Shown one piece after another: positions 9,997 through 46,480 of a stretch of DNA of 64,000 nt. The position numbers and the translations under genes are program-made. The notes under the pieces were generated by a model. That model was not told the origin of the DNA and ran no database searches. It worked only from the letters and a program-made list of their open reading frames with translations. Positions within the stretch are counted from its first letter, which is position 1, and the number at the start of each line of letters is the position of its first letter. This DNA comes from an uncultured Ectothiorhodospiraceae bacterium (GTDB taxonomy: Bacteria; Pseudomonadota; Gammaproteobacteria; JAABTG01). The DNA lies in assembly GCA_964439835.1 (NCBI GenBank), contig CAYTPQ010000001.1, forward strand, positions 84,120-148,119, read 5' to 3'.

Positions 9997-10064
9997 AATT
10001 TACGGCATAAAATGCCGGGGGCGAGCGGCGCGCCAGCCCGTTGAGCGCCCGCCCGGAGGTTGGG

Positions 10065-18226: not shown

Positions 18227-18986
18227 TCCACTCACCGAGTGGCGGCGTACTGGCATCGGGGTCGGCCTGGCCGCTCTGCTCGCGCTGGCGCCACCCCCCG
18301 GTGTGGCGGATACGGCCTCGGGGTCCCTGCCTGCCGCCTGCGCGGTCGACTGCGTGAGCCGCTACGGCGAGGTACTGGGCACGGCGGACCCCGGCGTGCC
18401 CGCCCACTCCAACTGCAGCTCGGCCTGCGTCTCGTTCGAGCCGCACGTGCGGGACGGGCGTTTCCTCGGCATGAAGTGGCAGTGTGTCGAGTACGCCCGC
18501 CGCTGGCTCTACACCGCCAAGGGCGCGGTCTTCGGCGACGTCGACGTGGCGGCCGACGTCTGGCGCAGGGTCGACGCCCTGACCCGAGTCGCGGACGGCG
18601 GCCGCATCGCTCTCACCGCTCACCCCAACGGCTCCCCGTCCCCTCCACGGCCCGGCGACCTGCTGGTCTACGGCGACGAGTTCCTCGGCACCGGCCACCT
18701 GGCCGTCGTCCTGCGGGTGGACCCCGCGGCGGGCACCGTGGAGGTCGCGGAGCAGAACTACGACAACCGCCCCTGGCCGGCCGACCACGCCCGTCGGATC
18801 GACCTGGTCGAGCGTGGCGGGAGGTTCTGGCTGCTGGACGCGTACCTGATTGGCTGGAAGCGCGCCGAGGGGTTACCCGAGGTCTCCAGTGACGTCGGAG
18901 CCCCGGGGGATCCCACCCCGTACCGTGATCCGGCGGCTGGGGTACAGGTCATCGGTCCCCCTGGGTCCCGGCTTACGCCGGAATGA
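18214..18986 (+). CDS. Secreted CHAP-domain (cysteine/histidine-dependent amidohydrolase/peptidase) protein.
   Basis: GTG start inside the right arm of hairpin A. Signal peptide RRTGIGVGLAALLALA. CHAP catalytic Cys context QCVEYARRW and His context GHLAVVLRVD. Confidence 0.7.
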
Positions 18987-19104
18987 CAGCCCGCGCGTGT
19001 GCCGCGAGTCGGCGTCGCTCGCGGGCGGCACGCACGACCTCTGTATGGACAGCGGGCGTGACCCGTGGTGGAGTCTCGACCATCCGCCTTCCGGGAGGTC
19101 CATC

Positions 19105-20172
19105 ATGCTGAGCGAGGCCAGGGGGAAGTTGAACCGTCTGCGGGCCCGCTGCGCGCCCTTCACCCTGCTCAGTGGGCCGCGCGCGGCCGAGGCCATCGAG
19201 TCCCTGGCCGTGTTCGAGCTCCGCCCCGGCGAGTCGGTCACCGTGCGGCCGGGGACGCGCACGGACTACCTGTACGTGGTGGAAGGGGAGGTCGAGGTCA
19301 CCCCACCGGGTGGCCCGTCTACCCGGTACGTGCCGAGCGACACGGACGTGCGGCCGATCGAGCTCGAGGCGGGAGGCCCGCCGCTGACCATCTCGTCCGA
19401 AGGGTCCGGCCTGCTGGCGCGGGCCGACGGCGACACCCTCGACTACCTGCTCAGCTGGGAGACCCTGGGCACGGGCCTTGGCATCGAGAGCGAGGCCCTG
19501 CAGGCGCGCCTCGCCGCCGTCCGACGCTCGCTTGCCTTCCGGCGCATGCCCCTGGAGTGCGTCGAGGAGGCCTTCCGGCGCATGCGCCAGGTGCAGGTCC
19601 GCGCCGGCGAAGAGGTGGTGCGGCTCGGCGAGCCGGGAGACGCCTTCTACATCATCGAGTCGGGCCGGGCCGAGGTCTGGCGGCCGGGTCTTTACGACGA
19701 GGTGCCCCACAAGGTCGACGAGATGGGCCCGGGCGAGGCCTTCGGGGAGGAAGCGCTGCTCACAGGCGATGTACGCGGGGCGACCGTCCGCATGATCGAG
19801 GACGGTACCCTCCTGGTCATGGACAAGGCCGACTTCGAGGCCCTGATCGGCGCGCCGATGGTCGAGCACGTGGAGGCGAACATCGCCCAGGCCTGCCTCG
19901 ACTCCGGGTACATCCCGCTCGACGTCCGCTACGGCGAGGAGTTCGAGGAGGGCCACATACCCGGCGCGTTCATCATCCCGCTGCCCGAGCTGCGTCACCG
20001 CTTTCACGAGCTCGACCCGGCCGCCCGCTATCTGGTGTACTGCCGCAGCGGACGCCGCAGCGCGGTGGCCGCCCTGCTCATGAAGCAGCGAGGGCTGCAC
20101 GCCGTGAGTCTGCGCGAGGGCATCCGCGGCTGGCCCTTCGCCACGGAGGTCTCGACTGTAATCGAGCTGTAA
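19105..20172 (+). CDS. Protein with two cNMP-binding-like domains and a C-terminal rhodanese (sulfurtransferase) domain.
   Basis: ATG at 19105 behind a GGGAGG RBS. The first cNMP-like domain is degenerate. The second is clear (GEPGDAFYIIESGRAEV, GPGEAFGEEALL). The rhodanese domain has an active-site Cys (YLVYCRSGRRS). Confidence 0.8.
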   Translation: MLSEARGKLNRLRARCAPFTLLSGPRAAEAIESLAVFELRPGESVTVRPGTRTDYLYVVEGEVEVTPPGGPSTRYVPSDTDVRPIELEAGGPPLTISSEGSGLLARADGDTLDYLLSWETLGTGLGIESEALQARLAAVRRSLAFRRMPLECVEEAFRRMRQVQVRAGEEVVRLGEPGDAFYIIESGRAEVWRPGLYDEVPHKVDEMGPGEAFGEEALLTGDVRGATVRMIEDGTLLVMDKADFEALIGAPMVEHVEANIAQACLDSGYIPLDVRYGEEFEEGHIPGAFIIPLPELRHRFHELDPAARYLVYCRSGRRSAVAALLMKQRGLHAVSLREGIRGWPFATEVSTVIEL

Positions 20173-20357
20173 CAATGCCCTGCTGTACTGCGCGGCTGGC
20201 GGCACGCGCTGGCGCACCGCCCGAGCTCCTCGAGCCGGTCCTCGCGCGCTGCCCCATGCGGACGCTGGCCCCCGGCGAGACCCTGCTCTCGCCCGCTGAG
20301 CCGAACCACCACCTCTACCGGCTGCCGGACGGGCGGCCGACTGACGCGCAGCAAGCG

Positions 20358-20460
20358 AAGGAACCACAGAGAGCACAGAGAGCACAGAGAGCACAGAGTA
20401 CACAGAGTTATCGGAGCTTCTGCTCTGTGCACTCTGTGGGCTCTGTGGTTCATAAACCAC
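20358..20460. repeat. Hairpin element B, built from tandem 9-bp units (AGAGAGCAC x3-4); same family as A and C.
   Basis: Left arm ACCACAGAGAGCACAGAGAGCACAGAGAGCACAGAGTACACAGAG at 20363-20407. A 15-nt loop. Right arm CTCTGTGCACTCTGTGGGCTCTGTGGTT at 20423-20450. The element lies immediately upstream of crp. Confidence 0.6.
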
Positions 20461-20481
20461 TCCTGACACCGAGAGGCGCAG

Positions 20482-21123
20482 ATGCTCGATAGGATCCCGC
20501 TCTTCGCGGCGCTGACGCCCGAGGCCGTCGCCACGCTCGAACAGCACTCGGCGGTGCGCAGCTTCCGCAAGAACACCGTGGTCATCCAGAAGGGCGACGA
20601 GAGCTCGACCCTGTACGCGGTGGTCGAGGGGCGGCTGAAGGTCTCGATCGCGGACAACGAGGGCAAAGAGGTCATCCTGAACACCCTCGGCCCGGGCGAC
20701 CACTTCGGCGAGCTGGCGATCCTGGGGGAGGGCCCGCGCACCGCGACGGTGATCACGCTGGAGGACTCGCGGCTCCTCACCATGTCGCGCTCGGCCTTCC
20801 TCGACTGCCTCGGCAAGCACCCCGACATCGCGCTGGCGCTGATCCGCCACCTGGCCGACCGGGTGGCCCAGCTGACCGAGCAGGTGGCGAGCCTGGCCCT
20901 GCGCGACGTCTACAGCCGGGTGCGCGAGACGCTGACGGCGAACGCGGTGGAGGCGGACGGCAAGCTGGTGACCGGCCGCTTCACCCAGAGTGAGATCGCG
21001 CAGATGGTCGGCTCCAGCCGCGAGATGGTCAGCCGGATCTTCAAGGAGCTGCGCGAGGGCGGCTACATCAGCCTGGACGACAAGCGGGTCACGATCCTGA
21101 AGAAGCTGCCGACGCGCTGGTAG
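20482..21123 (+). CDS. Crp/Fnr-family transcriptional regulator (cNMP-binding domain plus C-terminal HTH).
   Basis: 213 aa. cNMP domain motifs GPGDHFGELAIL and RTATVITL. C-terminal HTH SEIAQMVGSSREMVSRIFKELRE. Confidence 0.85.
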   Translation: MLDRIPLFAALTPEAVATLEQHSAVRSFRKNTVVIQKGDESSTLYAVVEGRLKVSIADNEGKEVILNTLGPGDHFGELAILGEGPRTATVITLEDSRLLTMSRSAFLDCLGKHPDIALALIRHLADRVAQLTEQVASLALRDVYSRVRETLTANAVEADGKLVTGRFTQSEIAQMVGSSREMVSRIFKELREGGYISLDDKRVTILKKLPTRW

Positions 21124-23932
21124 CGTCCCCCGCGGCACCGTCCGCACTGCCACCCGCAGCGCCCTCGGCCTGGCACGCCAGCCGACGGCCGACGACCGCC
21201 GCCAGGTTGAGCGAGAGCTGCGAGGTGATCCCGGGGAAGAGCCTACCGAGGTGCTGGACCCGGTTCCACTCGATCGACAGCGCCCGGGTCGCACCCACGG
21301 AAACGACGTCTGCGGTCCGCGGCGATTCGCACACCAGCGCGATCTCGCCGAACATCTCGCCCGGGCGCAGCTCGCGCACATGCCTGCGGGCCCCGTCGGA
21401 CGAGCGCTGCCAGACGCCGGCGGCGCCGTCCAGGATCACGAACATCTCCGACGCCCTCTCGCCCTGGCGGACGATCGCCTCGCCGCTCGCGTACTCGCGC
21501 AGGCCGCCGAGCAGCACCAGCTTCTTGACCTGCCAGGGCCGCAGGCCCCGAAAGAGCTCGCAGGTCCGGAGCACCTCCGGCCGGATCTGCAGCGTCAGGA
21601 GGTCGTAGAGCGTCACCAGCCGGACGGTGGAGATCAGGATGGGGAGCAGCAGGAGCGTCACCAGCAGGGCGACCAGCAGCACCATGGCGCTGAGCAGCCC
21701 GAAGTGGACGACCGGCGGGAAGCTCGACACCGCGAACACTGCGAAGCCGAGCGCTAGCGCCACCGCTGTGCTGACCATCGGCAGGACTTCGTCGCGCACG
21801 GTGTCCCGCAGCGCCTGGTCCTGATCGCCGTGGGCCTTGGTGTGCTGCTGGTAGCGGGCCATGAAGTGGAGATACAGCACGTCGCAGATCCCGAGAGAGA
21901 TCGACGCCACCATCGCCGTGCTGGTGTCGAGCGGGATCCCCAGGTACCCCATCACCCCGAACAGCGCCGCGATCGGGAACAGCATCGGCACGACGGCGAT
22001 GAGACCGGCCTTGGCGTTCACGTAGAGCAGCGAGACCACCAGCCAGATGACGAAGAACATCAGGGCGAGCGAGGAGGCCTGCCCGTAGGCGATGTTGTCG
22101 GTCGCCCGCTGGGCGAGCACCGCGTCGCCGGTGACCTCCACGTGCAGACCGGGGTCGATCTCACGCTCGACGAACGCCTCCAGCCCCGCCAGCGCCTCGC
22201 GCAGCTCACCCGAAGAGGACATGCCGTGGCGCACCAGGATCCGGGCCGTGCTGAAGTCGGCAGACACGTACGGGGCCACGTCCTTGTGGTCGACGAACAG
22301 CAGGTACTCGCGGACCACGTCGTCGGTCTCGGGCAGCCGCAGCTTGCCGGAGCGGTCCTCCTCCATCACCGCGTTCACGAACGCCACGAAGTCCGCGAAC
22401 GACATCGAGACGTCGAAGCGGCCGCTGGTCGCCAGGTACTCCTGGATCCGGCGCAGCTGCTGCAGGTAGTACACCTGCTGGAAGGTGCCGCGGATGTCCG
22501 CCCGGACCACGATGGAGAAGCTCTCGGCACCGGCGAGACTTGCGCGCAGTCGATCGAGGCGCTGCACCGTGGGCGAGTCGCTCGCGAAGTAGTCCAGGGG
22601 GTCGTTGTTCACGCGGACCTGGGCGGCGCCCCACAGCCAGGCCAGCGCCACGACCCCGAGCAGCCCGAGGGTCACCCAGCGGTGGGCGACGGCCGCCCCG
22701 ACCACGCGCACCGCGACCCGCTGCAGGCGGCCGTCGGCGAAGGTCCGCTCCCGCGCCGGACCGGCGGGGTGCCGCTCCGCGAGCGCCAGGTAGGCCGGGA
22801 TCAGGGTCACGGTGACCGCGAAGTTCAGCAGCAGGGCCGTGGACGAGACCAGTCCGAAGTCCCGCAGCAACTCGATGCCGCTCGCCGCGGTGGAGAGGAA
22901 GCCGACGTAGGTGGTGCCGAAGGTGAGCAGGACGGTCAGTCCCAGGCTGTCCCCCATCCTGAGGAGCGCCTCCCGGGTACCGATCCCCTCCTCCAGCCCG
23001 CCGTAGTAGTCGGCGATCAGGTGAGTGGCCTCGGAGGAACCGACGATCACGATGAGGGCGGGGACGATCGAGGTCAGGATGCTGACCGGGATCCCCACCG
23101 CCGCCATCAGCCCGAGGGTCCAGAGGATCGTGACACCACTTGTGAGCAGCGGGACGACGGCGGCGTTCGCCCGCCGCAGGGCCAGGGCCAGGGTCAGCAC
23201 CGAGACCCCGAGGGCGAGCGGGAGCACCCGCCACTGGTCGCGGTGGATGCTCTCCGTGATCGCCGCCCGCACGTAGGGCGAGCCGATCACGAAAGACTCC
23301 GCCAGGCTGCCCGCGAGGGGCCGCAGCGCCGCCTCGACCGCGGCGACCGCCTGCTCCTCGAAGTCGGCGGCCTCCGGCTTCCGCTGCAGCGAGACCAGCG
23401 CCACCATGGCCTGGCCATCGGTGGAGAGCAGGTTGCGCGCGACCAGCGGATTCCCCAGGGCGTCCCGCAGGACCTGCGCCGCCGCCTCCTCGGAGGCGGG
23501 GATCGGGTCCAGGTAGGGGCGGCTCGTCACCTGGCCGTCGACACTCTTGACGTTCTTCGCCGTGAACAGGCTCTCGACGTGAGCGACCTGGGGCAGCTCG
23601 GCAATCCGGTCGAGCACGGCCTTGACCTGGAGGAGCTTGGGCTCGGTCAGGAGGGCGGAGTCGCGGAAGAAGAGCGTCAGCGGCTCGTCCGCGCCGAAGG
23701 TCGCCTGGGTGCGGGCCAGCAGTGCCTTCGCCGGGTCACCCTGCAGGGTCATCCCCTCGGCGGAGATATGCAGGCGGAGGGACGGGAGTTGGGAGGCCGC
23801 GAGGGCGCTAAGCAGGACCAGCGCCAGGAGGACGCGCCAGGGGCGGGTTGCCGAGTAGCCGATGACCCGGTGCACCACGGAGCGCGTCCCTCGCTGGCAC
23901 CGGCCTGCAACCGGCACGGCGGAGTATAGCAA
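21089..23932 (-). CDS. MMPL/RND-superfamily (SSD) transporter with a C-terminal cytoplasmic cNMP-binding domain.
   Basis: 947 aa. Two 6-TM MMPL repeats with large periplasmic loops. C-terminal LFRGLRPWQVKKL...GEMFGEIALV...RTADVVS is a CAP-type cNMP domain. The 3' end overlaps convergent crp by about 35 nt. Confidence 0.8.
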   Translation of the reverse strand: MLYSAVPVAGRCQRGTRSVVHRVIGYSATRPWRVLLALVLLSALAASQLPSLRLHISAEGMTLQGDPAKALLARTQATFGADEPLTLFFRDSALLTEPKLLQVKAVLDRIAELPQVAHVESLFTAKNVKSVDGQVTSRPYLDPIPASEEAAAQVLRDALGNPLVARNLLSTDGQAMVALVSLQRKPEAADFEEQAVAAVEAALRPLAGSLAESFVIGSPYVRAAITESIHRDQWRVLPLALGVSVLTLALALRRANAAVVPLLTSGVTILWTLGLMAAVGIPVSILTSIVPALIVIVGSSEATHLIADYYGGLEEGIGTREALLRMGDSLGLTVLLTFGTTYVGFLSTAASGIELLRDFGLVSSTALLLNFAVTVTLIPAYLALAERHPAGPARERTFADGRLQRVAVRVVGAAVAHRWVTLGLLGVVALAWLWGAAQVRVNNDPLDYFASDSPTVQRLDRLRASLAGAESFSIVVRADIRGTFQQVYYLQQLRRIQEYLATSGRFDVSMSFADFVAFVNAVMEEDRSGKLRLPETDDVVREYLLFVDHKDVAPYVSADFSTARILVRHGMSSSGELREALAGLEAFVEREIDPGLHVEVTGDAVLAQRATDNIAYGQASSLALMFFVIWLVVSLLYVNAKAGLIAVVPMLFPIAALFGVMGYLGIPLDTSTAMVASISLGICDVLYLHFMARYQQHTKAHGDQDQALRDTVRDEVLPMVSTAVALALGFAVFAVSSFPPVVHFGLLSAMVLLVALLVTLLLLPILISTVRLVTLYDLLTLQIRPEVLRTCELFRGLRPWQVKKLVLLGGLREYASGEAIVRQGERASEMFVILDGAAGVWQRSSDGARRHVRELRPGEMFGEIALVCESPRTADVVSVGATRALSIEWNRVQHLGRLFPGITSQLSLNLAAVVGRRLACQAEGAAGGSADGAAGDATSASAASSGS

Positions 23933-24067
23933 CCCAGGTTAAGGAACCTGGCGACCCGCCGTCGCCCGGGGTCGGCGCCCGGGTTGTGGGATCTGGTGAC
24001 CTCCGGACTCCGCCGGGATGGTGGGACCGCCGCTTCCGCGGCGGCCCCGCGCGACGTCTCCCGGGAC

Positions 24068-24790
24068 CTACCGCTTGATCGCCCCGCGGTCGTCGGCCGC
24101 GACCTCGGCCAGACCCACCTGCTCCAGAAGGGCCGCGCGCTGGGCGCGCAGGCCGGCGTCGTTCGGGTTGCGGTCGATGAGCCGGGTGAGGGCGTCGAAG
24201 GCGTCGTACCAGAGCCCGGCCTCGGCGTAGAGCGCGGGCCGGGCGCGCTCGTTGGCCGCAGCGATGCGCGAGCGGGTCGTCGCATCGGCGGCAACGCGGC
24301 GAACGGTACCGCCCGCCGTGCTGTCGAGCGAGCGCTGGGCCGGGTCGCGGACCACCGACACGAACCACTGGTACTCCACGTCGGGCTTCAGGGTGATCCC
24401 CTGGCTCGCCAGGGGCACGGCGTGCAGGCCGGCAGACCCCGGAGCAGACAGTTTGCGCTCCAGGACCGGCTTCTCGGCGCCGTCGATCATCAGCGTCACC
24501 TCCACCGGCCCGTCCACCGGGCCCGAGGTGTACCAGTAGAGCGTGGGCTGAGCCTGGGTCGTCAGGCCGGTGTGGTCCGGGGCCAGCACCTCGACCGAGA
24601 CGTTCGACGGGTCAGCGCCGCGGGTGCCCCCGCCGACCCGGCTGGCCGGGGCGCCGCGCATGGGCGGCTTGTAGACCAGGGGGGACGCGTCGGCGCCAGT
24701 GGCCGCGGGGTCCGCAGCGAGAGCCGGGGCCGAAAGCCCGAAAATGCAGGAGAGTGCGAGGACGCTCGCCGATACCTTCCAGGTGCTCAT
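24068..24790 (-). CDS. Secreted DUF928-domain protein.
   Basis: Signal peptide MSTWKVSASVLALSCIFGLSAPALA. The PPMRGAPASRVGGGTRG motif is characteristic of DUF928. GGAGG RBS. Confidence 0.75.
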   Translation of the reverse strand: MSTWKVSASVLALSCIFGLSAPALAADPAATGADASPLVYKPPMRGAPASRVGGGTRGADPSNVSVEVLAPDHTGLTTQAQPTLYWYTSGPVDGPVEVTLMIDGAEKPVLERKLSAPGSAGLHAVPLASQGITLKPDVEYQWFVSVVRDPAQRSLDSTAGGTVRRVAADATTRSRIAAANERARPALYAEAGLWYDAFDALTRLIDRNPNDAGLRAQRAALLEQVGLAEVAADDRGAIKR

Positions 24791-24913
24791 TGCTCGATAC
24801 CTCCGCCTTCTGACCAGGCCGCCGGTGGGTACCGGCGCACATTAACCTGGGTTACAGGGTCAAGCATAGGGGGCCGGCACCCCGCCGGCTGCCCCGGGGG
24901 GTCACAGACCGGG

Positions 24914-24943
24914 TGTGACGTATTCACGTGTGAATAGGTCACA
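24914..24943. promoter_or_regulatory. 30-bp near-perfect palindrome with CRP-like half sites, in the divergent DUF928 / hypothetical-gene intergenic region.
   Basis: TGTGACGTATTCACGTGTGAATAGGTCACA: outer half sites TGTGAC...GTCACA and inner half sites TTCACGTGTGAA. An extra GTCACAG lies at 24901-24907. Confidence 0.4.
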
Positions 24944-25028
24944 GCGCCGGCCGGCACTGGCGCACCTGTGTCTCTTGGCCCGCCTGCCACACTTTGCTCA
25001 AGACGTGACGAACCGGAGTGAAGGCACC

Positions 25029-25331
25029 ATGACCGCGACCATCGCAACCCTCGAGCCCGTCTCCAGCTGGTGGCAGACCCTCGGCCTGGGCAGCGTCTGG
25101 GGCTTCGGCCGCGACTCCGGGCGCTCAGTCCGCCGCCCCAGCAGCGTCAGCACAAAGGGCACCGATACCCACTACGCCGGGCGCCGGATGCGGGTCGGCA
25201 CCGGCTACTGCGGGACCGTCGAGCTGACCGGCCGCTACACGCTGAGCCCGCATACCGAGGTGCGGCTCTACGAGGACACCGAGGGCCGTCTTCACTACCT
25301 GGCCAATCTGCGGCCGGCCGCCAGCGCCTAG
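25029..25331 (+). CDS. Hypothetical protein.
   Basis: ATG within ORF 24915-25331 (MTATIATLEP...). No recognisable domain. Coding status uncertain. Confidence 0.3.
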   Translation: MTATIATLEPVSSWWQTLGLGSVWGFGRDSGRSVRRPSSVSTKGTDTHYAGRRMRVGTGYCGTVELTGRYTLSPHTEVRLYEDTEGRLHYLANLRPAASA

Positions 25332-25403
25332 GGCTCGATGGCACGCTTCTAGCTTCCCGGTACGGGCGCCTCACGCCCCATCGGCCCTGGGAGACCCCGC
25401 ACC

Positions 25404-27239
25404 GTGAAGACCGAGACCCTCCAGCATTCCCCGATCCAGCGTTACCTGGACACCCTGCACGCCGAACTGGCGGACCTGCGGGGCGGCGAGGTCGCCAGCT
25501 ACATCCCGGAACTCTCCCACGCCGACCCCGAGTGGTTCGGCATCGCGCTGGTGACCGTCGACGGCCACGTCTACCAGTCCGGGCAGAGCCGCCAGCCCTT
25601 CACCGTACAGTCGATCTCCAAGGCCCTGGTCTACGGCCTGGCGCTGGACGACCACGGGGTCGACCCGGTACTGGCCAAGGTGTGGGTGGAGCCCTCGGGC
25701 GAGGCCTTCAATTCGATCAGCCTGGAGCCCGGTACCGGCCGGCCCCGCAACCCGATGATCAACGCCGGCGCCATCGCCACTGCCGGGCTGATCAAGCGCG
25801 AGGAGAGCCTCGGGCCGATGCAGCGCATCCTCGCGGCCTTCGCCCGCTATACCGGGCACCCTGCCGAGGTCGACGAGAAGGTCTACTTGTCGGAGAAGGA
25901 GACGGGGCACCGCAACCGCGCCATCGCCCACCTCCTGCTCGGCCACGGGATCCTGGACCGGGAGCCCGAGGAGGTGCTCGACATCTACTTCCAGCAGTGC
26001 TCGATCCTGGTCACCGCTCGCGACCTGGCGCTGATGGGCGCCTGCCTCGCCAACAGCGGCGTCAACCCCATCACCGGCGTCCAGGCCCTGAAGAGCGAGC
26101 ACGTGGAGAAGGTCCTGAGCGTCATGACCTCCTGCGGCATGTACGACTACTCGGGCGCCTGGATCTACGACGTCGGCATGCCCGCGAAGAGCGGCGTCGG
26201 CGGCGGGATCCTGGCCGTGCTGCCGGGGCAGTTCGGGCTCGGCGTGTTCTCGCCGCCGCTGGATGCCAAGGGCAACAGCGTGCGCGGCATCGAGGCGTGC
26301 AAGCGGATCTCCCGGGACTTCAAGCTGCACGTCTTCAACGTCGCCCACTCCACCTCGAACACCGCCATCCGCGTGCGCTACGACGCCACCACGGTGCGCT
26401 CGCGGCGGGTGCGCCCGGCCGACGAAGTCGCGGCGCTCAACGAGCACGGCAACCGGATCCAGGTCTATGAGCTGCAGGGCGAGCTGCGCTTCGGCGCCGC
26501 CGAGTCGATCGTCCAGCAGATCCTGGAGGGCGCGGAGAGCCTCGACTACCTGGTGGTCGACCTGAAGCGCGTGTTCGAGCTCGACCACGCGACGCGGGAG
26601 ATCTTCGCCCGGCTGGCCGACGCGATGGAGGCCGCCGGCAAATCGGTGCTGTTCGCCCACACCCGCGAGCACTACCGGTTCCGCCGGCACCTGCTGCGGC
26701 ACTTCCCCGACGCCGAGATGGGCCCCCTCCTGGCGCACGACGACGTGGATCACGCACTCGAGTGGTGCGAGGAGCACCTCCTGCGCGACAAGCTGGGGCA
26801 TGCCCCGGGCGCGGCACAGGTCGGCGGGTGCGCCGACCAGTTCCTCTGCCGGGGCATGACGGCGACCGAGATCGGGTCGCTCCAGAGCAAGGCCCGCCAG
26901 GTCCGCTTTGCCAAGGGCGAGTCCGTGTTCCGCGCCGGCGACGCGGCGGACTCCTTCTTCTTCATCCTGAGCGGGGAGGTGGAGGTGTACGTCGCCACGG
27001 ACTCCCGGCGCGAGGTCCGCCTGGCCACGCTGGGCGCCGGCAACGCCTTCGGCGAGCTGTCGATGCTGGATCAGCGCCGGCGCACCGCCGACGTGCGCGC
27101 CGTGGTGGACACCGAGTGCCTGGAGGTCCACTTCGACGTCCTGGACGAGGCCGTGAAAACGCGCCTCCTGCTGAACCTGGCCGCCCAGCTCGCCCAGCGG
27201 CTCAGCCGCGACGCCAAGGAGATCCGGCAGCTCGGCTAA
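25404..27239 (+). CDS. glsA: Glutaminase (GlsA-type serine-dependent beta-lactamase fold) fused to STAS and cNMP-binding domains.
   Basis: Glutaminase motifs QSISK and NPMINAGAI. A middle STAS-like segment (LDYLVVDLKRVFELDHA). C-terminal CAP-type cNMP domain (FILSGEVEVYV, GAGNAFGELSML, RTADVRA). Confidence 0.85.
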   Translation: MKTETLQHSPIQRYLDTLHAELADLRGGEVASYIPELSHADPEWFGIALVTVDGHVYQSGQSRQPFTVQSISKALVYGLALDDHGVDPVLAKVWVEPSGEAFNSISLEPGTGRPRNPMINAGAIATAGLIKREESLGPMQRILAAFARYTGHPAEVDEKVYLSEKETGHRNRAIAHLLLGHGILDREPEEVLDIYFQQCSILVTARDLALMGACLANSGVNPITGVQALKSEHVEKVLSVMTSCGMYDYSGAWIYDVGMPAKSGVGGGILAVLPGQFGLGVFSPPLDAKGNSVRGIEACKRISRDFKLHVFNVAHSTSNTAIRVRYDATTVRSRRVRPADEVAALNEHGNRIQVYELQGELRFGAAESIVQQILEGAESLDYLVVDLKRVFELDHATREIFARLADAMEAAGKSVLFAHTREHYRFRRHLLRHFPDAEMGPLLAHDDVDHALEWCEEHLLRDKLGHAPGAAQVGGCADQFLCRGMTATEIGSLQSKARQVRFAKGESVFRAGDAADSFFFILSGEVEVYVATDSRREVRLATLGAGNAFGELSMLDQRRRTADVRAVVDTECLEVHFDVLDEAVKTRLLLNLAAQLAQRLSRDAKEIRQLG

Positions 27240-27249
27240 ACGCCCCCGA

Positions 27250-27370
27250 ACATGGTGTGCGGCGGAAGCCGCACCTACGGGTCTGCTGTAGGGCCGCCGC
27301 AGGGCCGGCTTTAGCCGGCCATTCCTCCGTAGGCCCGGCCACCCCGTGCGGCTGAAGCCGCACCTACGGG
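27250..27370. repeat. REP/BIME-like palindromic elements between convergent genes.
   Basis: Two copies of GTGCGGC(N4)GCCGCACCTACGGG (27255-27281, 27345-27369) flank GGCCGGCTTTAGCCGGCC (27307-27324). The same two motifs recur at 43534-43558 and 43584-43601. Confidence 0.5.
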
Positions 27371-29325
27371 CTTTCAACCGGGGCGGCCGCTCCCCCGCCC
27401 CCCACCTGGAGCGCGAAGACGTTCACGACCTCGGCCTTGCCCTTGAGCTGCAGGCCGCCGACCGGGCGGACCGGGAAGGCGTCGCGCAGCCGGCGGACGG
27501 TGGACTCGGCGATCATCACCCGGCAGGGGCAGGTCGGGTCGTCGCTGGCGACCTCCTTGCCGTAGCTCTCCAGCCGCGCCGCGGTGTTCACCACGTCGCC
27601 GATGGTGGTGTACTTCATGCGCCGGGCGCTGCCGATGCAGCCCGCGACCACCGGGCCGGTGGCAATGCCGAGGCGCATCCGCACCATCGGCAGGCCCTGC
27701 TCGGCCCACACCGCGTTCATGCGGCCCATCTCGCGGGCCATGGCGAGGGCGCACTCCACCGCGTTGCGGGCGTCCTGCTCGATCTCCTCGTTGGTGGTGC
27801 GCACCACCGGCACGCCGAAGTTGGCCTTGATGGCGTCGCCGTAGTAGTCGTCGACCACCCCCCCATGGGCCATGACGAGCCCGGCCATAGTCTCCATGTA
27901 CTCGTTGAGCCAGTCCATCAGCCCCTCGGGCGTCAGGCGCTCGGCCACCGGGGTGAAGTTCTCCAGGTCCGAGAACAGCACCGTGACGATGTGGGTACGC
28001 GCCTCGATGCGTCCCCCGGCCAGGAACTTCTCGCGCTCGCGCCAGAGCTCCTCGGCGACGTCGGGGCTCACCTGCTTGGCGAAGATGTCCATCAGGAAGC
28101 GCCGCTCCGAGCGCTCGAAGCCCGAGATGTACGCCACCACCAGGGTCGCCGAGGCGAACATGGCCATCGCCGCCGGGACGATCGGCAGCCACCACCCGTA
28201 GAGGAAAGCGCCGAAGGTCAGGGCCGTGAGCGCGAGCCAGGCGGGCGGGGCGACGATGGCGAACCGCCCGAGCGATCGGACCAGCAGCGCGAGGCCGGCC
28301 CCGAGCACGCTCCAGAAGAAGATCCAAGCGTACTCCAGGGGCTCGGACAGGAACCGTGGCGGCCGGTCCCCGTCCATCGCCATGCGCAGCAGCTGGCTGG
28401 TCGCGTGGGCGTGCAGGAACACCCCCGGGACGTTGGCGATGCCGCCGGCGCCCCGGCTGTAGGGCGTGAGGAAAAGGTCCTTCACGCTGTCGGCAGCAAC
28501 GCCGATCAGCACGATGCGGTCACGGAGCGCGCCCTCCGGTACCCGGCCCTCCAGCAGCTCGGTCAGGGTGTGGGACTCGAAGGGCTTGGCGCCGCCCTTG
28601 TAGTCCAGCAGGAACTGGTAGCCCGCGGCGTCCGCCCCCGAGTAGCCTCCGTCGTGGGACTCCAGCGGCACCAGAGTCACCTGGCCGAGGCGAAGGTAGG
28701 TCGGGTCCGGCTCACCGGGCTGGGGCGAGACGCCCTCCCGCGCGAGGTAGAGCAGTGCCAGGCGCAGGGAGAGGGAGTAGCCGACCCGCTCGCCGTCGTC
28801 CAGGAACAGCAACCCCCGGCGTACCGCGCCGCCCGGGTCGAGCACCAGGTCGGCGAACCCCACCTGCTCGCTGCCGACCAGCACCGAGGGCGGCGGCACG
28901 ATCGCCCCGCCCACCGCCCGGAACTTCTCGATCGCGACGATGTTCGGGCGCGCGGTCAGCAGGGCCTCGAAGCGCTCGGTCCCCGGGGCCACGGCCAGGT
29001 CCCGGTAGAGGTCGAACCCGACCGCCCGCGGCTCGCCGCGCAGGATGGCCTCCAGCACGTCCGCCAGCATGGCGTCGCTCAAGGGCCACTGACCGAGCCG
29101 GTGGATGTCCTCGTCGGTGGCCCGGATGACCGCGACCCGCCGGTCCTGCCAGCCGTGCTCGGGCCGCAGCCGCAGGTAGGCGTCGTAGGCCGCCAGCTCC
29201 ATCGCCTGCAGGTACCCGAGCGCCCGCAACCCCGCCACCACCAGGAACACGGAGAGCGCCACCCCGATGCTGACCACCCCGGGCTGGCGAAAGATCTTCG
29301 GCACGCGTTGCGATAACGGGGACAT
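27364..29325 (-). CDS. CHASE2 sensor domain fused to a class III adenylate/guanylate cyclase (membrane-anchored).
   Basis: N-terminal TM, CHASE2-like periplasmic region, 3 TM helices, then cyclase-homology-domain motifs (VTVLFSDLENFTPVAERL, GDAIKANFG, GIATGPVVAG). Confidence 0.85.
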   Translation of the reverse strand: MSPLSQRVPKIFRQPGVVSIGVALSVFLVVAGLRALGYLQAMELAAYDAYLRLRPEHGWQDRRVAVIRATDEDIHRLGQWPLSDAMLADVLEAILRGEPRAVGFDLYRDLAVAPGTERFEALLTARPNIVAIEKFRAVGGAIVPPPSVLVGSEQVGFADLVLDPGGAVRRGLLFLDDGERVGYSLSLRLALLYLAREGVSPQPGEPDPTYLRLGQVTLVPLESHDGGYSGADAAGYQFLLDYKGGAKPFESHTLTELLEGRVPEGALRDRIVLIGVAADSVKDLFLTPYSRGAGGIANVPGVFLHAHATSQLLRMAMDGDRPPRFLSEPLEYAWIFFWSVLGAGLALLVRSLGRFAIVAPPAWLALTALTFGAFLYGWWLPIVPAAMAMFASATLVVAYISGFERSERRFLMDIFAKQVSPDVAEELWREREKFLAGGRIEARTHIVTVLFSDLENFTPVAERLTPEGLMDWLNEYMETMAGLVMAHGGVVDDYYGDAIKANFGVPVVRTTNEEIEQDARNAVECALAMAREMGRMNAVWAEQGLPMVRMRLGIATGPVVAGCIGSARRMKYTTIGDVVNTAARLESYGKEVASDDPTCPCRVMIAESTVRRLRDAFPVRPVGGLQLKGKAEVVNVFALQVGGGGAAAPVESP

Positions 29326-29539
29326 TCTGGTTTTCCTGCAGACCGCCCGGGGACTGGGCTCCAGGGGGCTCGCCGAGGGCGCATTGTCTGGCCTCGGCGC
29401 GGGGAAAACCAGGCGGCCGCGGCCTGACGGGTCAACGACCAGTGGCGCGTCTGCTTCGTGTGGCGCAAGGGATCAGTTGGGACTGATCCTGGCGACGTTC
29501 CCACGGACGGAGCCTCAGGGCAGTCGCATACCCCGGATG

Positions 29540-29896: not shown

Positions 29897-29947
29897 CCGC
29901 ACCGGTGTCGGCGAGCGCTCTGCGCACACGTCCGGACGCCCCCCGGA

Positions 29948-30244: not shown

Positions 30245-30404
30245 TGGGCGGCACTCAACCTAAGGAGTACAGAATTCAGTGCAGAATAGAGGCGCGACGT
30301 CGGCGGCGTCAATTGTGTGAGGGCCCATGGGCGCCCCCATGGATCGCGAGGGCGGGGGGTTCCGCGCATCGGAGCACATCACTAATTGTGATACACTCTC
30401 GGCT

Positions 30405-38044: not shown

Positions 38045-38297
38045 GCTCGCGGGCGCCCTGCGCCGCAGTTGCATCTGACGGCCCTGGCCGAGTTACCCCT
38101 CGGCCGGGGCCTTTGTATTTCCGCCCCTCGCGGCTCTTCTCATCGCTCACTGATTAGTCTATGTTGAGTCCCTGACCCGGCTGTCCCGCGGAGTTTTCAG
38201 TAGCCGGGGCGCGGTTCTCCGAGACGTGCCATGGGGCCAGCGCGGTCGGGTGTCGCGACCGATGTGACGCCGGTGCAACGGCCAACGGGGAACCGCG

Positions 38298-41200
38298 GTG
38301 GGGGGAGAAAGCGTGCGGCGAGAGAGAGGCCGACCCGTTCGGGGCGGGCGAACCAGTACGGGCTGGCGGCGTTCGACCCTCGCCGGTCTGGTGTTGACCC
38401 TGGGTTCGGGGTTTCCGGGCGCAGGCCAGGCGCAGGCGCCAATCGTCCGTGACGGCACCGTCGGCCCTGCCGGGCCAGTCAACGCCGCCGGGGGCGTCTA
38501 CACCATACCCGCCAGCGACGGCACCTCGGCCGGCGCGAACCTCTTCCACAGCTTTTCCAACTTCAATGTCCCCGCCGCAACGACCGTGCAGTTCACGGAC
38601 ACGGGCGCGCCGAGCGCGGTCGCGAACGTGATCAGCCGCGTAACCGGCAGCAACCAGACCCGCATCGAGGGCACCCTCTCCAACATCCCCGGCGCCAACT
38701 TCTATCTCCTGAACCCGCGCGGGGTCTTCATCGGTGAGAACGCCTTCATCGACGTCTCGGGCTCGTTCCACGTCTCGAGCGGCGACTACATCCGCTTCGG
38801 CGACGGCGGGCGCTTCTACGCTGACCCGGCACGGGTGAGCACCTTCTCGACCGCGGAGCCGGCGGCGTTCGGCTTCCTGGGCGGAAATCCATCGGGTGGG
38901 ACGCGCGGCACGATCGAGGTGTCGGGCAGCCCCTTCGACGCCGGCTTCGGCTTCGGCATCCACGTCATCCCCGACGGCCAGGCCTGGTCCTTCGTCGGCG
39001 GCGACGTGCGCATCGGATGGGGCGACACCCAGCTCGCCTACCTGTTCAGCTGGGCAGGGCGCGTGAACCTGGTGAGCGTCGCCTCCGCGGGCGAGGTGCA
39101 GCTGACGCCGACCGGCGTCACGCTGGACGGGGTGAGCGCGCTGGGTCGCGTCGACATCGTCGAGGGCAGCTCGTTCGACGTGCGCGACATCTACATCCGG
39201 GCGGGGACGCTGAACATCGACGACTCGTACCTGGCGTCCGGGGTCTTCACCGACACCGAGGGAGTCATCGACGTGGCCGTCACGGGCGACGCCACCATCG
39301 GCGGAGCCGGCGGATTCTGGGAGGCGGGCTTCTTCTCGGCGGCCGGCGCGGAGTTCGGCGGATTCGGCCCCGGTGCGCCGATCCGGCTCGCCGTGAGCGG
39401 AACGCTTGCCGTCGACGGCATCGGCAGCGTGCAGACGCTGAACCGCAGCTTCGGCACCGAGAACGCGGGCGCCGTCGACATCGTCGCCGGCACGGTGGAG
39501 ATCCGGAACGGCGGCTTCGTCGTCAGCCGCAACGACGCAGGCTCGGGTACCGGCGGGGCGCTGCGGATCGAGTCCCAAACCCTGCGACTCTCGGGGGACG
39601 GACCGCGCTCCGCCTCCGCCCCCGACTTCTTCGCCTTCGACGCCACGCCTGGCATCGCCGCCTACACCACCAACGGAGCGGACGCCGGTAGCGTAAGCGT
39701 CACCTCCAGCTTGCTGGAAGTGCTGGGCGGCGCCGAGGTGAGCGCCCGCACGTTCGGCGCCGGCCGGGGCGGTGACCTGACCATCGACGTGACCGAGGTT
39801 CGAGTGTCCCGCGGCGGCGCGGCCGCCGGCGGCATCGCGGCCGAATCGATCGGCACCCAGCCCGGGGGAGGGGTCATCCCGACGGGGGACGCTGGCAATC
39901 TGGTCATCCGCGCCGCACGGCTCTCGCTGCTCGACGACAACGCCCAGGTCAGCGCCAGCACCAACTCGACCGGGCGCGCCGGCGCGGTCACCATCACCGC
40001 GACAGAGTCGGTCACGACTGCGGGCCGCAACAGCGGAGTCTTCAGCAGTACCCGGGGCAAAGCCGCCGAGATCGGCGCGCAGCCGGGCGACGCGGGTAAC
40101 GTCGCCATCACCACGCCACTGCTCCGGATGGACGGGCCCGGGCGCATCGAGGCGGCCACCAGCGGTGACGGCAGTGCGGGGTCCGTGCTCCTGGACGTGG
40201 GCCGCCTGGAGCTCCTGGGTGGCGCCCAGGTGCGGTCGTTCAGCGGCCAGGTGCTGCCGGGCGCGTCGGCGCCGGACGTCGGCCTCGGCAACGCCGGCAC
40301 CGTCAGCGTCAGGGCGAGCGAGTCCGCTTCCCTCTCCGGCGTCAGCGAGACCGGGGCGCCGACCTCGCTCTCCAGTCAGACCCGCGGCCCGGGCGCCGGC
40401 GGGCAGGTCGAGGTCTACACCCCGCTCCTGACGCTGGCCGACGGGGCGCTCATCGGCGCCGACACCGGCGGCGACGGCGACGCGGGGGCGGTCTACGTCG
40501 AGGTCGACCGCGCAACCCTGTCGGGCGGCGCGCGGATCAGCAGCGACAGCGGTATCACGGTGGGCGGTCTCGACCTGCTGGGGACGGGCGAGGGCGGCGG
40601 CGTCACCCTGGTCGCGCGGGAGAGCGCCAGTCTGAGCGGTAGCGGTACCCGTGTCTCGACCCGGACCCAGGGAGCCGGGTCGGGCGGAGTGGTAACCCTT
40701 CAGGCCGGCGCCATTGACCTCGCGGGCGGCGCGGTAATCGCGTCCGACACCTCCGGCACGGGAGACGCGGGCGCGGTCTTGCTCTACGGAGACACGACTC
40801 GCCTGAGCGGCAGCGGGACGCGCGTTTCGACCGAGACGCGCGGCACCGGCGCCGGCGGAGGCGTGCTGATCGCGGGACCGAGTCTGCAGTTGCAGGGCGG
40901 GGCGGTCGTCAGCGCCGAGACCTTCGGCACCGGCAACGCCGGCGCGGTGGTCTTGGAGGGCGGCAACGTTGCGCTCGCCGGCAGCGGGACGCGCGTCTCC
41001 ACCGGCACCAGCGGCCCCGGACGCGGCGGCGACGTCGAGATCTCCGGCGAGCAGCTGTCGATTACGAGCGGCGCGTCGGTATCCGCCAGCAGCACCGGCA
41101 CCGGCCTCGCGGGCAACATCACCATCCGCCTCGGGGACAGCCTGACCATGCAGGGCGGGAGCGTGACGACGCAGGCCGTCACCTCGGACGGCGGCAACAT

Positions 41201-41738
41201 CACCATCACAGCGCCGCGGCTCATCCACCTGCGGGACAGCCAGATCACCACGTCGGTCGAAAGCGGGACGGGCGGGGGCGGCAACATCTTCATCGACCCG
41301 CAGTTCGTGGTGCTCCAGAACAGCCAGATCATCGCCAACGCCTTCGGCGGGCCGGGCGGCAACATCCGGATCGTCGCCGGGCAGCTGATCGCCGACCCCT
41401 CGACCCTCATCTCGGCCTCGTCGGCCCTCGGCATCGACGGCACCGTGAACATCGACGCCCCCGACACCAACGTCAGCTCCGCCCTGGTGGCTCTGCCCGA
41501 GTCCTACCTGGACGCCTCGAGCCTGCTGCAGCCGAGCTGCGGGGCGGCGCGCGCGGGCTTGAGCAGCCTGGTCGAGGTGGGCCGCGGCGGCCTGCCGCCG
41601 GACCCGGACGGGTATCTCTGGAGCGTGGACGTGGACACGAAGACCGTCGCCCCGGCCAGCCGCCGGACCGCCGCCCGCGCCGCGGCGAACCCCTTCGAGG
41701 GCGCCCTCGCCTTCGCCGGCCAGGGGTGCCGGCGGTGA
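38298..41738 (+). CDS. TpsA exoprotein: N-terminal TPS/haemagglutination-activity domain, long right-handed beta-helix repeat region, distinct C-terminal domain.
   Basis: TPS-domain motifs NLFHSFSNFNV and NPRGVFIGENAFIDVSG. Degenerate GAG...SG(S/T)... repeats throughout. A conserved C-terminal block of about 150 aa (NIFIDPQFVVLQNSQIIANAFGGPGGNIRI...). Confidence 0.85.
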   Translation: MGGESVRRERGRPVRGGRTSTGWRRSTLAGLVLTLGSGFPGAGQAQAPIVRDGTVGPAGPVNAAGGVYTIPASDGTSAGANLFHSFSNFNVPAATTVQFTDTGAPSAVANVISRVTGSNQTRIEGTLSNIPGANFYLLNPRGVFIGENAFIDVSGSFHVSSGDYIRFGDGGRFYADPARVSTFSTAEPAAFGFLGGNPSGGTRGTIEVSGSPFDAGFGFGIHVIPDGQAWSFVGGDVRIGWGDTQLAYLFSWAGRVNLVSVASAGEVQLTPTGVTLDGVSALGRVDIVEGSSFDVRDIYIRAGTLNIDDSYLASGVFTDTEGVIDVAVTGDATIGGAGGFWEAGFFSAAGAEFGGFGPGAPIRLAVSGTLAVDGIGSVQTLNRSFGTENAGAVDIVAGTVEIRNGGFVVSRNDAGSGTGGALRIESQTLRLSGDGPRSASAPDFFAFDATPGIAAYTTNGADAGSVSVTSSLLEVLGGAEVSARTFGAGRGGDLTIDVTEVRVSRGGAAAGGIAAESIGTQPGGGVIPTGDAGNLVIRAARLSLLDDNAQVSASTNSTGRAGAVTITATESVTTAGRNSGVFSSTRGKAAEIGAQPGDAGNVAITTPLLRMDGPGRIEAATSGDGSAGSVLLDVGRLELLGGAQVRSFSGQVLPGASAPDVGLGNAGTVSVRASESASLSGVSETGAPTSLSSQTRGPGAGGQVEVYTPLLTLADGALIGADTGGDGDAGAVYVEVDRATLSGGARISSDSGITVGGLDLLGTGEGGGVTLVARESASLSGSGTRVSTRTQGAGSGGVVTLQAGAIDLAGGAVIASDTSGTGDAGAVLLYGDTTRLSGSGTRVSTETRGTGAGGGVLIAGPSLQLQGGAVVSAETFGTGNAGAVVLEGGNVALAGSGTRVSTGTSGPGRGGDVEISGEQLSITSGASVSASSTGTGLAGNITIRLGDSLTMQGGSVTTQAVTSDGGNITITAPRLIHLRDSQITTSVESGTGGGGNIFIDPQFVVLQNSQIIANAFGGPGGNIRIVAGQLIADPSTLISASSALGIDGTVNIDAPDTNVSSALVALPESYLDASSLLQPSCGAARAGLSSLVEVGRGGLPPDPDGYLWSVDVDTKTVAPASRRTAARAAANPFEGALAFAGQGCRR

Positions 41739-44072: not shown

Positions 44073-44084
44073 GGTTTTGCCCCG

Positions 44085-46367: not shown

Positions 46368-46480
46368 CCCAGTGGTCTCCCGTGCGGGGGGACACCTGCG
46401 CCGCGCCGAGTCTCCTACGGGAGACGGGGCTCGGGGCAGGCGCCCGGACAGTTAACGCACGATAACAGGGGTACAGCGCC

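Follow-up and report, generated by a model that had tools for sequence, protein, structure and literature searches.

An RND-Type Transporter Carrying a Fused Cyclic-Nucleotide-Binding Domain, with Recurrent Nucleotide Cyclase Neighbors

Introduction

Transporters of the resistance-nodulation-division (RND) superfamily build and defend bacterial envelopes, and are known to move mycolates, hopanoids, siderophores and drugs. Here, we describe a gene from an uncultured Ectothiorhodospiraceae bacterium (NCBI GenBank assembly GCA_964439835.1, contig CAYTPQ010000001.1, positions 84,120 to 148,119 of the forward strand; this stretch of 64,000 nucleotides, analyzed as a whole, is referred to as the window), in which a 12-helix RND membrane domain and a C-terminal cyclic-nucleotide-binding (CNB) domain are encoded in one reading frame (the RND-CNB fusion). 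This is an uncharacterized combination of two well-known modules that is common in environmental and symbiotic bacteria, for which there is specific genomic evidence of wiring to dedicated nucleotide cyclases, and in which a lipid-type exporter is probably under the direct control of a second messenger.

On the transporter side, the closest described systems are MmpL3, MmpL4 and MmpL5, which are mycobacterial RND exporters of lipids and siderophores belonging to the HAE2 family, and the hopanoid transporter HpnN. These share with the window protein the 12-transmembrane (TM) RND fold, two periplasmic domains of ~180 amino acids and a match to Pfam MMPL (Foldseek E-values of 5e-25 to 3e-20, TM-scores of ~0.6-0.8 on the target), and, like them, the window protein has no membrane-fusion or outer-membrane partners encoded nearby. 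However, the sequence identity is only 14-17%, no ligand-binding CNB domain is present on those transporters, and the TM4 and TM10 motifs of the RND-CNB family (GSTEDIH and GIxVDDTxH) differ from the Asp-Tyr pairs of MmpL3. Among curated models, the best-scoring one is that of the HAE3 family (TC 2.A.6.7; TIGR00921), whose members export hydrophobic and amphiphilic compounds, although the window protein scores below the NCBI cutoff and HAE3 proteins lack a CNB domain. One HAE3 member, AmeD of Castellaniella defragrans, is reported to be a component of a monoterpene efflux system encoded by several genes (PMC6394551), whereas the surroundings of the window gene contain no efflux partner genes.

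CNB domains are also found on other transport proteins. In MloK1, SthK, the HCN and CNG channels and SLC9C1, as in the window protein, a C-terminal cytoplasmic CNB domain is joined by a conserved linker to the last TM helix, and the CNB domain of SthK aligns with that of the window protein at an E-value of 3.5e-6. The Na+/H+ exchanger SLC9C1 demonstrates that secondary transporters, and not only channels, can be CNB-gated (PMC6052114). The transport module of the window protein is, however, an RND domain, unrelated to the 6-TM channels or the NhaP fold, and the channels possess a helical C-linker, in contrast to the linker of ~10 residues found here. Bacterial exporters with a CNB-fold regulatory domain have likewise been described: HetC of Nostoc is a peptidase-containing ABC exporter with an N-terminal CNB domain that is required in vivo (PMC10986499), and a 2023 review that treats regulatory domains as "plug and play" modules lists only MFS-CNBD fusions, without a reported functional study (PMC10710835). 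These belong to other transporter superfamilies, and HetC is ATP-driven with its CNB domain at the N-terminus, whereas the ligand cassette of the RND-CNB fusion is canonical for cyclic nucleoside monophosphates (cNMPs). The post-translational RND regulators covered in the same review are the small proteins AcrZ, YajC and WatS1 (PMC10710835), and AcpM is seen bound to MmpL5 in solved mycobacterial structures.

On the signaling side, the CHASE2 cyclases CyaD1, CyaD2 and CyaK of Sinorhizobium meliloti feed cyclic AMP (cAMP) to the CRP-like regulator Clr, with an extracellular signal of protein type (PMC13001267). A CHASE2-cyclase and a Crp-family regulator are both encoded in the window as well; in S. 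meliloti, however, the receptor is transcriptional only and the partner is NsrA, whereas the window carries transporter, glutaminase and rhodanese CNB proteins and a DUF928 partner. A census of CNB-domain proteins from 2007 contains no RND class (PMC2246266), and our literature search for a protein combining an MMPL/RND domain with a cyclic-nucleotide-binding domain found no paper describing one, in line with the first-pass annotation of this DNA, which did not recognize the architecture as characterized.

Results and Discussion

Gene Model and Integrity of the Fusion

The RND-CNB gene is located at 21089..23878 on the minus strand and encodes 929 amino acids plus a stop codon, as defined by the open reading frame, the Pfam and NCBIfam matches and the alignment of homologs; all residue numbers below refer to this 929-residue frame. 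An earlier reading of this region had placed one MMPL/RND-cNMP gene at 21089-23932, of which the single uninterrupted gene and its two domains stand, while the start is probably shifted. The 947-codon frame 21089..23932(-) is unbroken by any stop or frameshift. However, the alignment of all homologs begins at the GTG at 23878, not at the TTG at 23932, and a database protein identical to the window protein (P0001) is likewise 929 amino acids long. The true start is therefore probably the GTG, 18 codons (54 nt) downstream of the TTG, and the real gene most likely spans 21089..23878(-).

The fusion could in principle be an artifact of a frameshift, a misassembly or a read-through of two genes, and the sole irregularity that might be cited to this effect is the uncertain start codon; no support was found. 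The frame is continuous, its GC content at third codon positions is uniform at 0.93, a value typical of real genes in this window with its overall GC of ~70%, and hundreds of independent sequences from different assemblies share both the architecture and a conserved junction. On this comparison, an artifact is already refuted by the recurrence of the fusion, and we regard its probability as negligible. The separation into two genes that had been named as a possible refutation of the first-pass annotation is thus not what the sequences indicate.

The final ~24 residues form a low-complexity Ala/Gly/Ser tail that is disordered in the AlphaFold2 (AF2) model (predicted local distance difference test, pLDDT, <50), and the corresponding 3' end of the gene overlaps the convergent Crp gene by 35 bp. 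At the other end, a perfect 7-bp inverted repeat (CCAGGTT-cctt-AACCTGG, 23934-23951, minus strand) overlaps the TTG start; after it, ~45 nt before the GTG at 23878, comes a -10-like TATACT. Together, these elements would fit a promoter/operator of the transporter gene and would favor the shorter gene model; the repeat is not kept in a related locus (L001) in which the DUF928 gene lies only 34 bp upstream of the transporter gene. Promoter and terminator scans over 20-30.5 kb of the window returned nothing informative, and no Crp box (TGTGA-N6-TCACA) is present upstream of the RND-CNB gene, the one match in the whole window being far off and below chance expectation.

Fold and Topology of the Membrane Domain

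Residues 1-752 (21623..23878, minus strand) make up the RND membrane domain, with 12 TM helices and two periplasmic domains of ~180 residues, as delineated by hydropathy, AF2 and Foldseek. The hydropathy profile shows TM1 (16-34), a 181-residue loop, TM2-6, TM7 (~392-419), a 182-residue loop, TM8-12 and a tail of 164 residues. Both hydropathy and charge on the one hand and the AF2 model on the other thus reproduce the 1+5/1+5 topology of RND proteins, with a large periplasmic domain following each of TM1 and TM7 and with cytoplasmic N- and C-termini; given the positively charged N-terminus and the 12 helices, the C-terminal CNB tail is therefore placed in the cytoplasm. The AF2 model, which was built on a 21-sequence alignment, has a mean pLDDT of 84.4 and a predicted TM-score (pTM) of 0.76, and the closest solved structures identified by Foldseek are MmpL4, MmpL5, MmpL3, NPC1L1, HpnN, Patched and NCR1 (E-values of 5e-25 to 1e-19), the match to MmpL4/5/3 spanning ~790 columns.

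At the level of Pfam, the window protein matches MMPL (PF03176) at 110.5 bits against a cutoff of 20.5 (1e-31), with both halves matched as two stretches, and also passes the thresholds of Sterol-sensing (42.1 bits vs 22.3) and Patched (26.8 vs 23), whereas ACR_tran, at 20.5 bits, falls below its cutoff of 28. By its modeled fold, the membrane domain is of the lipid- and sterol-moving RND branch and not of the AcrB-type drug pumps. The best NCBIfam subfamily model is HAE3 (TIGR00921), at 191.6 bits (E-value of 1.8e-56) and below the cutoff of 351.9, and the other subfamily models also remain below theirs: the MMPL/HAE2 model TIGR00833 actII (126 vs 874.7) and the HpnN models TIGR03480 (81.9 vs 751.85) and NF052374 (28.6 vs 1100). 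The initial description as a full 12-TM MMPL protein is thus correct in its 12 TM helices and RND fold, but the MMPL assignment applies only at the Pfam-superfamily level, as all curated subfamily cutoffs failed, and we take the RND-CNB family, on these scores, to be an unnamed RND branch. It also lacks the hallmarks of a tripartite HAE1/HME pump: the neighboring genes are DUF928, Crp, glutaminase and cyclase, and the loops of ~180 residues are not of AcrB size. No membrane-fusion protein or outer-membrane-factor genes are found near the RND-CNB gene in the window, which fits a stand-alone exporter of the MmpL/HpnN type.

The CNB Domain and Its Linker

The cytoplasmic CNB domain comprises residues 765-908 (21155..21586, minus strand), as delimited by Pfam, by sequence matches in the PDB and by the secondary structure of the AF2 model. 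Pfam cNMP_binding (PF00027) covers residues 812-894 at 71.6 bits, well above the gathering threshold of 27.5 (5.5e-20), and the PDB sequence matches include PKA-R, PKG, Crp and SthK (E-values of 3e-15 to 3e-6), with PKA-R and PKG at ~1e-15. In the AF2 model, N-terminal helices precede an 8-stranded beta-barrel and a long C-helix, with pLDDT values of 80-89.

In CNB domains, the G-E pair of the phosphate-binding cassette contacts the ribose 2'-OH, and R-[ST]-A contacts the cyclic phosphate. The cassette of the window protein, GEMFGEIALVCESPRTADVVS (21299..21361, minus strand), contains the G-E, R-T and A contacts within FGEIALVCESPRTADV (residues 843-858). Based on a 171-sequence alignment of the family, from which all family residue counts below are also taken, the occupancies are 162/171 for G844, 140 for E845, 146 for R854, 123 for T/S855 and 139 for A856, such that all canonical cNMP contacts are retained in the window protein and in ~80% of the family. 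The first-pass annotation, which had quoted the peptide GEMFGEIALVCESPRTADVVS as part of a well-formed CAP-type cNMP domain, is borne out here: the peptide is encoded, the C-terminal region scores as cNMP_binding with its cassette and contacts intact, and the AlphaFold check that had been proposed for this domain finds it folded in the model and cytoplasmic by topology.

Directly after TM12, the two domains are connected by a linker specific to the fusion (RLVTLYDLLTL, 21590..21622, minus strand). Its family motif, [VI]T[LV][WY]D[LIVM]L, occurs in all 21 of the 21 fused forms compared and in 0/26 CNB-less relatives, and across the aligned members the aromatic position is W/Y in 155/171 and the acidic position D/E in 157/171. 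This conservation argues for mechanical coupling between the domains, rather than a floppy tether.

Nucleotide Cyclases in the Gene Neighborhood

In the window, the RND-CNB gene is part of an island of ~10 kb (18850-29472) that encodes one CHASE2 class III cyclase and four CNB proteins, all with canonical cassettes. The CHASE2-cyclase (27364..29472, minus strand), which is the likely source of the ligand, lies ~3.4 kb upstream of the RND-CNB gene and retains its two metal-binding Asp residues as well as the Asn/Arg pair of the transition state. A second cNMP receptor, a Crp/Fnr-type regulator with CNB and helix-turn-helix domains (20482..21123, plus strand), is convergent with the RND-CNB gene; a third, a glutaminase-STAS-CNB protein (25404..27239, plus strand), is inserted between the cyclase and a secreted DUF928 protein (24068..24790, minus strand) that is encoded directly upstream of the RND-CNB gene on the same strand; and a fourth, a cupin-CNB-rhodanese protein, is found at 18850..20172 (plus strand), with its true start probably internal to the open reading frame. 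Homologs of these receptors recur beside or near RND-CNB genes elsewhere, with a glutaminase-STAS-CNB protein of 78% identity in L016 and cupin-CNB-rhodanese proteins in L011, L013 and L057. In a relative that is 63% identical (L002), CHASE2-cyclase, DUF928 and RND-CNB follow one another uninterrupted on one strand.

Loci of more distant subclades again have a cyclase as neighbor, though one of another build. In five of them (L010, L011, L013, L020 and L057), the start codon of the RND gene is overlapped by a short cyclase of type IIIa-like form, a HAMP-cyclase lies 168 bp from the RND-CNB gene in L022, cyclase-AAA_16-TPR proteins of 1146-1209 amino acids lie at 48-109 bp in four (L030, L033, L037 and L041), and an SCO4226-like cyclase lies at 30 bp in L003. 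A cyclase hidden Markov model finds a match at no more than 300 bp in 11/49 CNB-type loci and at no more than 4 kb in 13/49, compared to 1/38 CNB-less loci, this one being a contig-truncated close relative (L070; Fisher p = 0.01, with taxonomy as a possible confounder). The abutting cyclases have four unrelated architectures (CHASE2-, HAMP-, cyclase-AAA_16-TPR and short type IIIa-like), which suggests that what links them functionally to the same transporter is their common product and not a common sensor. Their recurrent recruitment would thus be best explained by dependence of the transporter on the cyclase product. The base-specifying residues are Lys/Asp(Thr) in adenylate cyclases and Glu/Cys(Gly) in guanylate cyclases; those of the L011 cyclase are Arg/Asp and thus adenylate-like, and the nucleotide is probably cAMP in some lineages.

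The combination of a cyclase with a CNB-transmembrane protein follows the same two-gene logic as the Pycsar anti-phage systems, in which case an infection-induced cyclic nucleotide would lead to cell killing or arrest. PADLOC indeed reports PycC at 83 bits on the cyclase domain and PycTIR at 37 bits on the CNB domain, and the window harbors toxin-antitoxin genes as well as a DNA methyltransferase. We nevertheless consider such a role very improbable. The PADLOC matches are generic and at the domain level only (30-83 bits), no better than the Pfam cyclase and CNB scores. Furthermore, the putative effector is a full 12-TM RND protein with conserved relay residues and folded periplasmic domains, the cyclases bear environmental-sensor domains (CHASE2, HAMP), and the gene is vertically spread in related sulfur-oxidizers among housekeeping genes (isc, hydrogenase, tRNA synthetase). 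The ParE/Phd toxin-antitoxin genes, two PIN-domain proteins and D12-class adenine methyltransferase of the window (29540-30259(-), 6434-6883(+), 32179-32832(+) and 12886-13845(-)) are scattered, which indicates mobile or accessory insertions between conserved signaling genes.

Distribution of the Family and a Branch with a GGDEF Fold

Among 5.8 billion proteins searched, 21 clusters combine MMPL with cNMP_binding, down to 27% identity, and CNB-less RND proteins rank below them. Our scan of GTDB, with one genome per species, identified ~44 species that encode the membrane domain and the CNB domain contiguously in a single frame, with no match to the window protein above 49% identity, and about 49 genome and metagenome loci carry the fusion. 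Most of the GTDB carriers are uncultured sulfur-oxidizing Gammaproteobacteria; the carriers include Sedimenticola, Candidatus Thiodiazotropha, tubeworm endosymbionts, Chromatiales, Ectothiorhodospiraceae and Thiotrichales, and, beyond the Gammaproteobacteria, Rokubacteria, Latescibacterota, Binatia, Brocadiia, Deltaproteobacteria and Verrucomicrobia. In a profile search of 1.84 billion representatives at 50% identity, the best 150 matches score 791-1186 bits, and in nearly all of them a single uninterrupted match covers profile positions ~1 to ~900. Since the best 150 are filled throughout by such matches, the family comprises, by this estimate, well over a hundred deep clusters, and the architecture is not rare. 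In databases, these proteins carry no label more specific than "MMPL family transporter" or [quoted passage not shown].

A sister branch of longer proteins (~1020-1075 amino acids, typically ~1060; P0007, P0010 and P0013, from loci L003, L004 and L012) carries a C-terminal GGDEF-fold domain in addition to the RND and CNB domains, and 21 of the best 150 representatives exceed 1000 amino acids. The GG[DE]EF motif of this branch is degenerate (GGSTF, EDGTF, QERVF), with loss of the catalytic motif, while an RxxD motif is retained exactly 5 residues upstream. This spacing is that of a c-di-GMP (cyclic di-GMP) I-site receptor and suggests a transporter that reads two second messengers, and with such a signature on a sub-branch, nucleotide-binding regulatory modules would have been stacked repeatedly on the RND-CNB transporter. 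Degenerate-GGDEF c-di-GMP receptors of the PelD type are known to control secretion; the sister branch resembles them in having lost the catalytic motif and kept RxxD, whereas the window protein differs, as it lacks the GGDEF-fold domain.

Proposed Mechanism and Alternative Explanations

Taking these observations together, we propose that the cNMP made by the neighboring cyclase allosterically gates a stand-alone inner-membrane RND exporter of lipids or hydrophobic compounds (MmpL/HpnN/HAE3-like), a model to which we give somewhat better than even chances. In this model, a class III cyclase would produce cAMP or cyclic GMP (cGMP) upon an external or envelope signal, in the window through the CHASE2 sensor cyclase and the periplasmic DUF928 protein, and the nucleotide would occupy the canonical phosphate-binding cassette of the CNB domain. 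CNB helices move on ligand binding in PKA-R, Epac and the CNG/HCN proteins; an analogous rearrangement could be passed through the conserved linker of ~10 residues to TM12 and on to the TM10/TM4 relay bundle or, alternatively, be transmitted by CNB-mediated oligomerization. Export of a hydrophobic or amphiphilic envelope component would then be switched on or off post-translationally, in parallel with the transcriptional (Crp) and other co-encoded cNMP receptors. The second-messenger gating that the first-pass annotation took the fusion to imply is supported by the cyclases abutting the gene in many lineages and by the conserved linker after TM12. We further infer that the ligand is the product of the neighboring cyclase, that its binding changes transport, and that a lipid or an amphiphile is exported.

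The case for a cNMP-controlled RND exporter rests on conservation in hundreds of lineages and on the pairing with dedicated cyclases. If the model is correct, a hard-wired cAMP/cGMP receptor on a lipid-type RND exporter would represent a new regulatory principle for this superfamily, and would give bacterial cNMP signaling a direct, non-transcriptional output at the envelope. As many carriers are uncultured sulfur-oxidizing symbionts of tubeworms and lucinid clams, envelope remodeling driven by host signals is plausible there.

Several findings weigh against this model. A cyclase abuts the gene in only about a quarter of the loci, and conserved-neighbor clustering over 50 loci, performed in search of a cargo pathway, found beyond the cyclases only lineage-local neighbors (an ABC exporter, a glutamate-synthase-like oxidoreductase, homogentisate dioxygenase and others). 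With respect to the ligand, the base-specifying residues of the window cyclase, Asp/Thr, are atypical and give no clear nucleotide call, ~15-20% of the family have degenerate cassettes (for example, P0012-P0015), and the CNB domain of HetC bound ppGpp, not cAMP, in vitro (PMC10986499). CNB folds take diverse ligands, and all three of these observations would suit a domain that binds ppGpp, a pyrimidine cNMP or a metabolite instead, or that serves only dimerization or localization, with the cyclase adjacency being coincidental. This is, in our judgment, rather unlikely when every canonical cNMP contact is kept in the window protein and in most of its family, when cyclases of four architectures abut the gene, and when three other canonical CNB proteins and a cyclase are encoded within 9 kb.

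Also unfavorable to the gated-exporter model, at least in part, are the putative relay residues. In the family, the TM4 motif G-x-x-E-D-x-H (GSTEDIH) has E283 in 120/171, D284 in 112/171 and H286 in 160/171 members, and the TM10 motif G-I-x-V-D-D-T-x-H has D667 in 163/171, D668 in 137/171 and H671 in 165/171, so that occupancies range from 65 to 96%. In the window protein, TM4 (IVGSSEATHLIADYY, 23003..23047, minus strand) keeps G280, E283 and H286 and has Ala in place of the family D284, while TM10 (SLGICDVLYLHFMARY, 21851..21898, minus strand) reads LGIC-DVLY-LH where the family consensus is LGIxVDDTxH. The replacement of the TM10 Asp-Asp by D-V-L-Y is confined to the window protein and its three closest relatives (4/171; 78-100% identical), and the same four sequences have E-A instead of E-D in TM4. 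This clade thus retains one acid per helix (E283 and D666, the TM10 Asp being shifted by one position) and both His residues. Its proton coupling may be altered or lost, which makes its pumping competence less certain than that of the family, and it might couple to protons differently or act as a sensor or facilitator. A compensated frameshift was considered as the source of the odd TM10 motif and rejected, as DNA comparison with L001 and L002 revealed no simple indel pair. Because the change is common to independent assemblies and the gene is otherwise intact, it is, from the alignments, a selected remodeling and not decay.

These substitutions bear on whether, at least in the window clade, the RND-like domain is a proton-driven pump at all or rather, like the sterol-sensing domains (SSDs) of SCAP and Patched, a sensor of the membrane or of lipids or else a passive facilitator, with the CNB domain integrating cNMP with that signal. 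Their restriction to this clade is compatible with such a role, as are the matches to both the Pfam Sterol-sensing domain and the Patched SSD, the presence of Patched and NPC1L1 among the best structural neighbors, and the further signaling-type domain (the degenerate GGDEF) on some relatives. However, the window protein has no output domain of its own, and the GGDEF variants are catalytically degenerate receptors and not enzymes. The acidic and His residues of TM4 and TM10 are near-invariant across the family, as expected for active RND transporters, and those that the window clade keeps, E283, D666 and both His, form an arrangement similar to that with which Patched and NPC1, as RND relatives, are functional. 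We therefore consider a sensor or facilitator unlikely, if credible for this clade, and retain the gated exporter as our preferred model.

DUF928 and the Wider Sensing Context

The DUF928 protein could be viewed as an MmpS-like periplasmic accessory of the transporter. We rejected this assignment, as DUF928 occurs much more widely than the RND-CNB fusion, is better conserved, is paired with the CHASE2-cyclase in loci without the transporter, and has a model that is not a lipid-carrier fold. Its homologs form >1300 clusters and, among the matches listed, the top 120 are 50-63% identical. In five loci without an RND-CNB gene (L091-L095, two of them near-identical), DUF928 is directly downstream of a CHASE2-cyclase, as it is in every examined locus outside the window whose contig extends to the upstream gene, namely L002 in addition to these five (the contig of L001 ends before it). 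The gene is thus, by this pattern of synteny, a partner of the CHASE2 cyclase as sensor, and not of the transporter. In the AF2 model (pLDDT 82), an Ig-like sandwich is followed by TPR-like helical hairpins, with the C-terminal domain of MtxA as the nearest solved structure. An invariant motif, Y-x-x-P-x-R-G-A-P-x-x-R-x-G-G-x-x-R, is located in the disordered region after the signal peptide, and may be a docking or processing site. A literature search found DUF928 to be essentially unstudied, with a single passing mention.

The genes downstream of DUF928 in L091-L095 vary, and include a CNB-SpoIIE phosphatase with RsbW/RsbV-like partners, a SulP-STAS-CNB transporter and LpxC. With variable genes following a conserved CHASE2-cyclase/DUF928 pair, the RND-CNB fusion would thus be one of several interchangeable cNMP effectors. 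The SulP-STAS-CNB protein, found in L093 and L094, is another transporter with a fused CNB domain. The CNB-SpoIIE (PP2C) phosphatase is accompanied by an RsbW-like kinase (HATPase_c_2) and an RsbV-like STAS protein beside cyclase/DUF928 in L001 (4088-6153), L002 (6354-8441) and L093 (7769-9824), and this set is apparently a cNMP-controlled partner-switching module.

A PEP-CTERM protein and an exoprotein with a two-partner-secretion (TPS) domain are found alongside the pair in L091, L092, L093 and L095, with a ShlB/POTRA transporter also present in three of these; the fifth locus, L094, ends at a contig edge. The window itself has a TPS-domain exoprotein (38268..41738, plus strand), a ShlB/POTRA two-partner-secretion transporter (ending at 43510, plus strand) and a CHAT-TPR protease-like protein (44085..46451, minus strand), a cluster (38268-46451) separated by 9-17 kb from the CHASE2-cyclase. 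In other genomes, too, TPS and ShlB genes are found on the flanks of CHASE2-cyclase/DUF928 pairs, and the other loci examined showed no CHAT gene.

More tentatively, and with less than even confidence, we suggest a broader picture in which the RND-CNB fusion and its cognate cyclase form a widespread "sense-and-export" module, with the second messenger directly gating a proton-driven lipid exporter. In the window, this exporter would be the envelope-remodeling output of an extracellular sensing system comprising the CHASE2-cyclase, DUF928, two-partner secretion and CHAT, and in the sister branch it would also read c-di-GMP via the degenerate GGDEF I-site. If true, this would be the first known case of an RND transporter controlled directly by a second messenger.

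Finally, two further open reading frames of the window have unusual architectures. One of 994 amino acids (10011-12995, plus strand) combines weak, mostly sub-threshold matches of the multiheme-cytochrome type (c554/MtrC-type) with TPR repeats. The other, of 913 amino acids (14042-16783, plus strand), joins an MFS-like region (MFS_1 at 25 bits, below the cutoff of 33.4) to C-terminal HEAT repeats.

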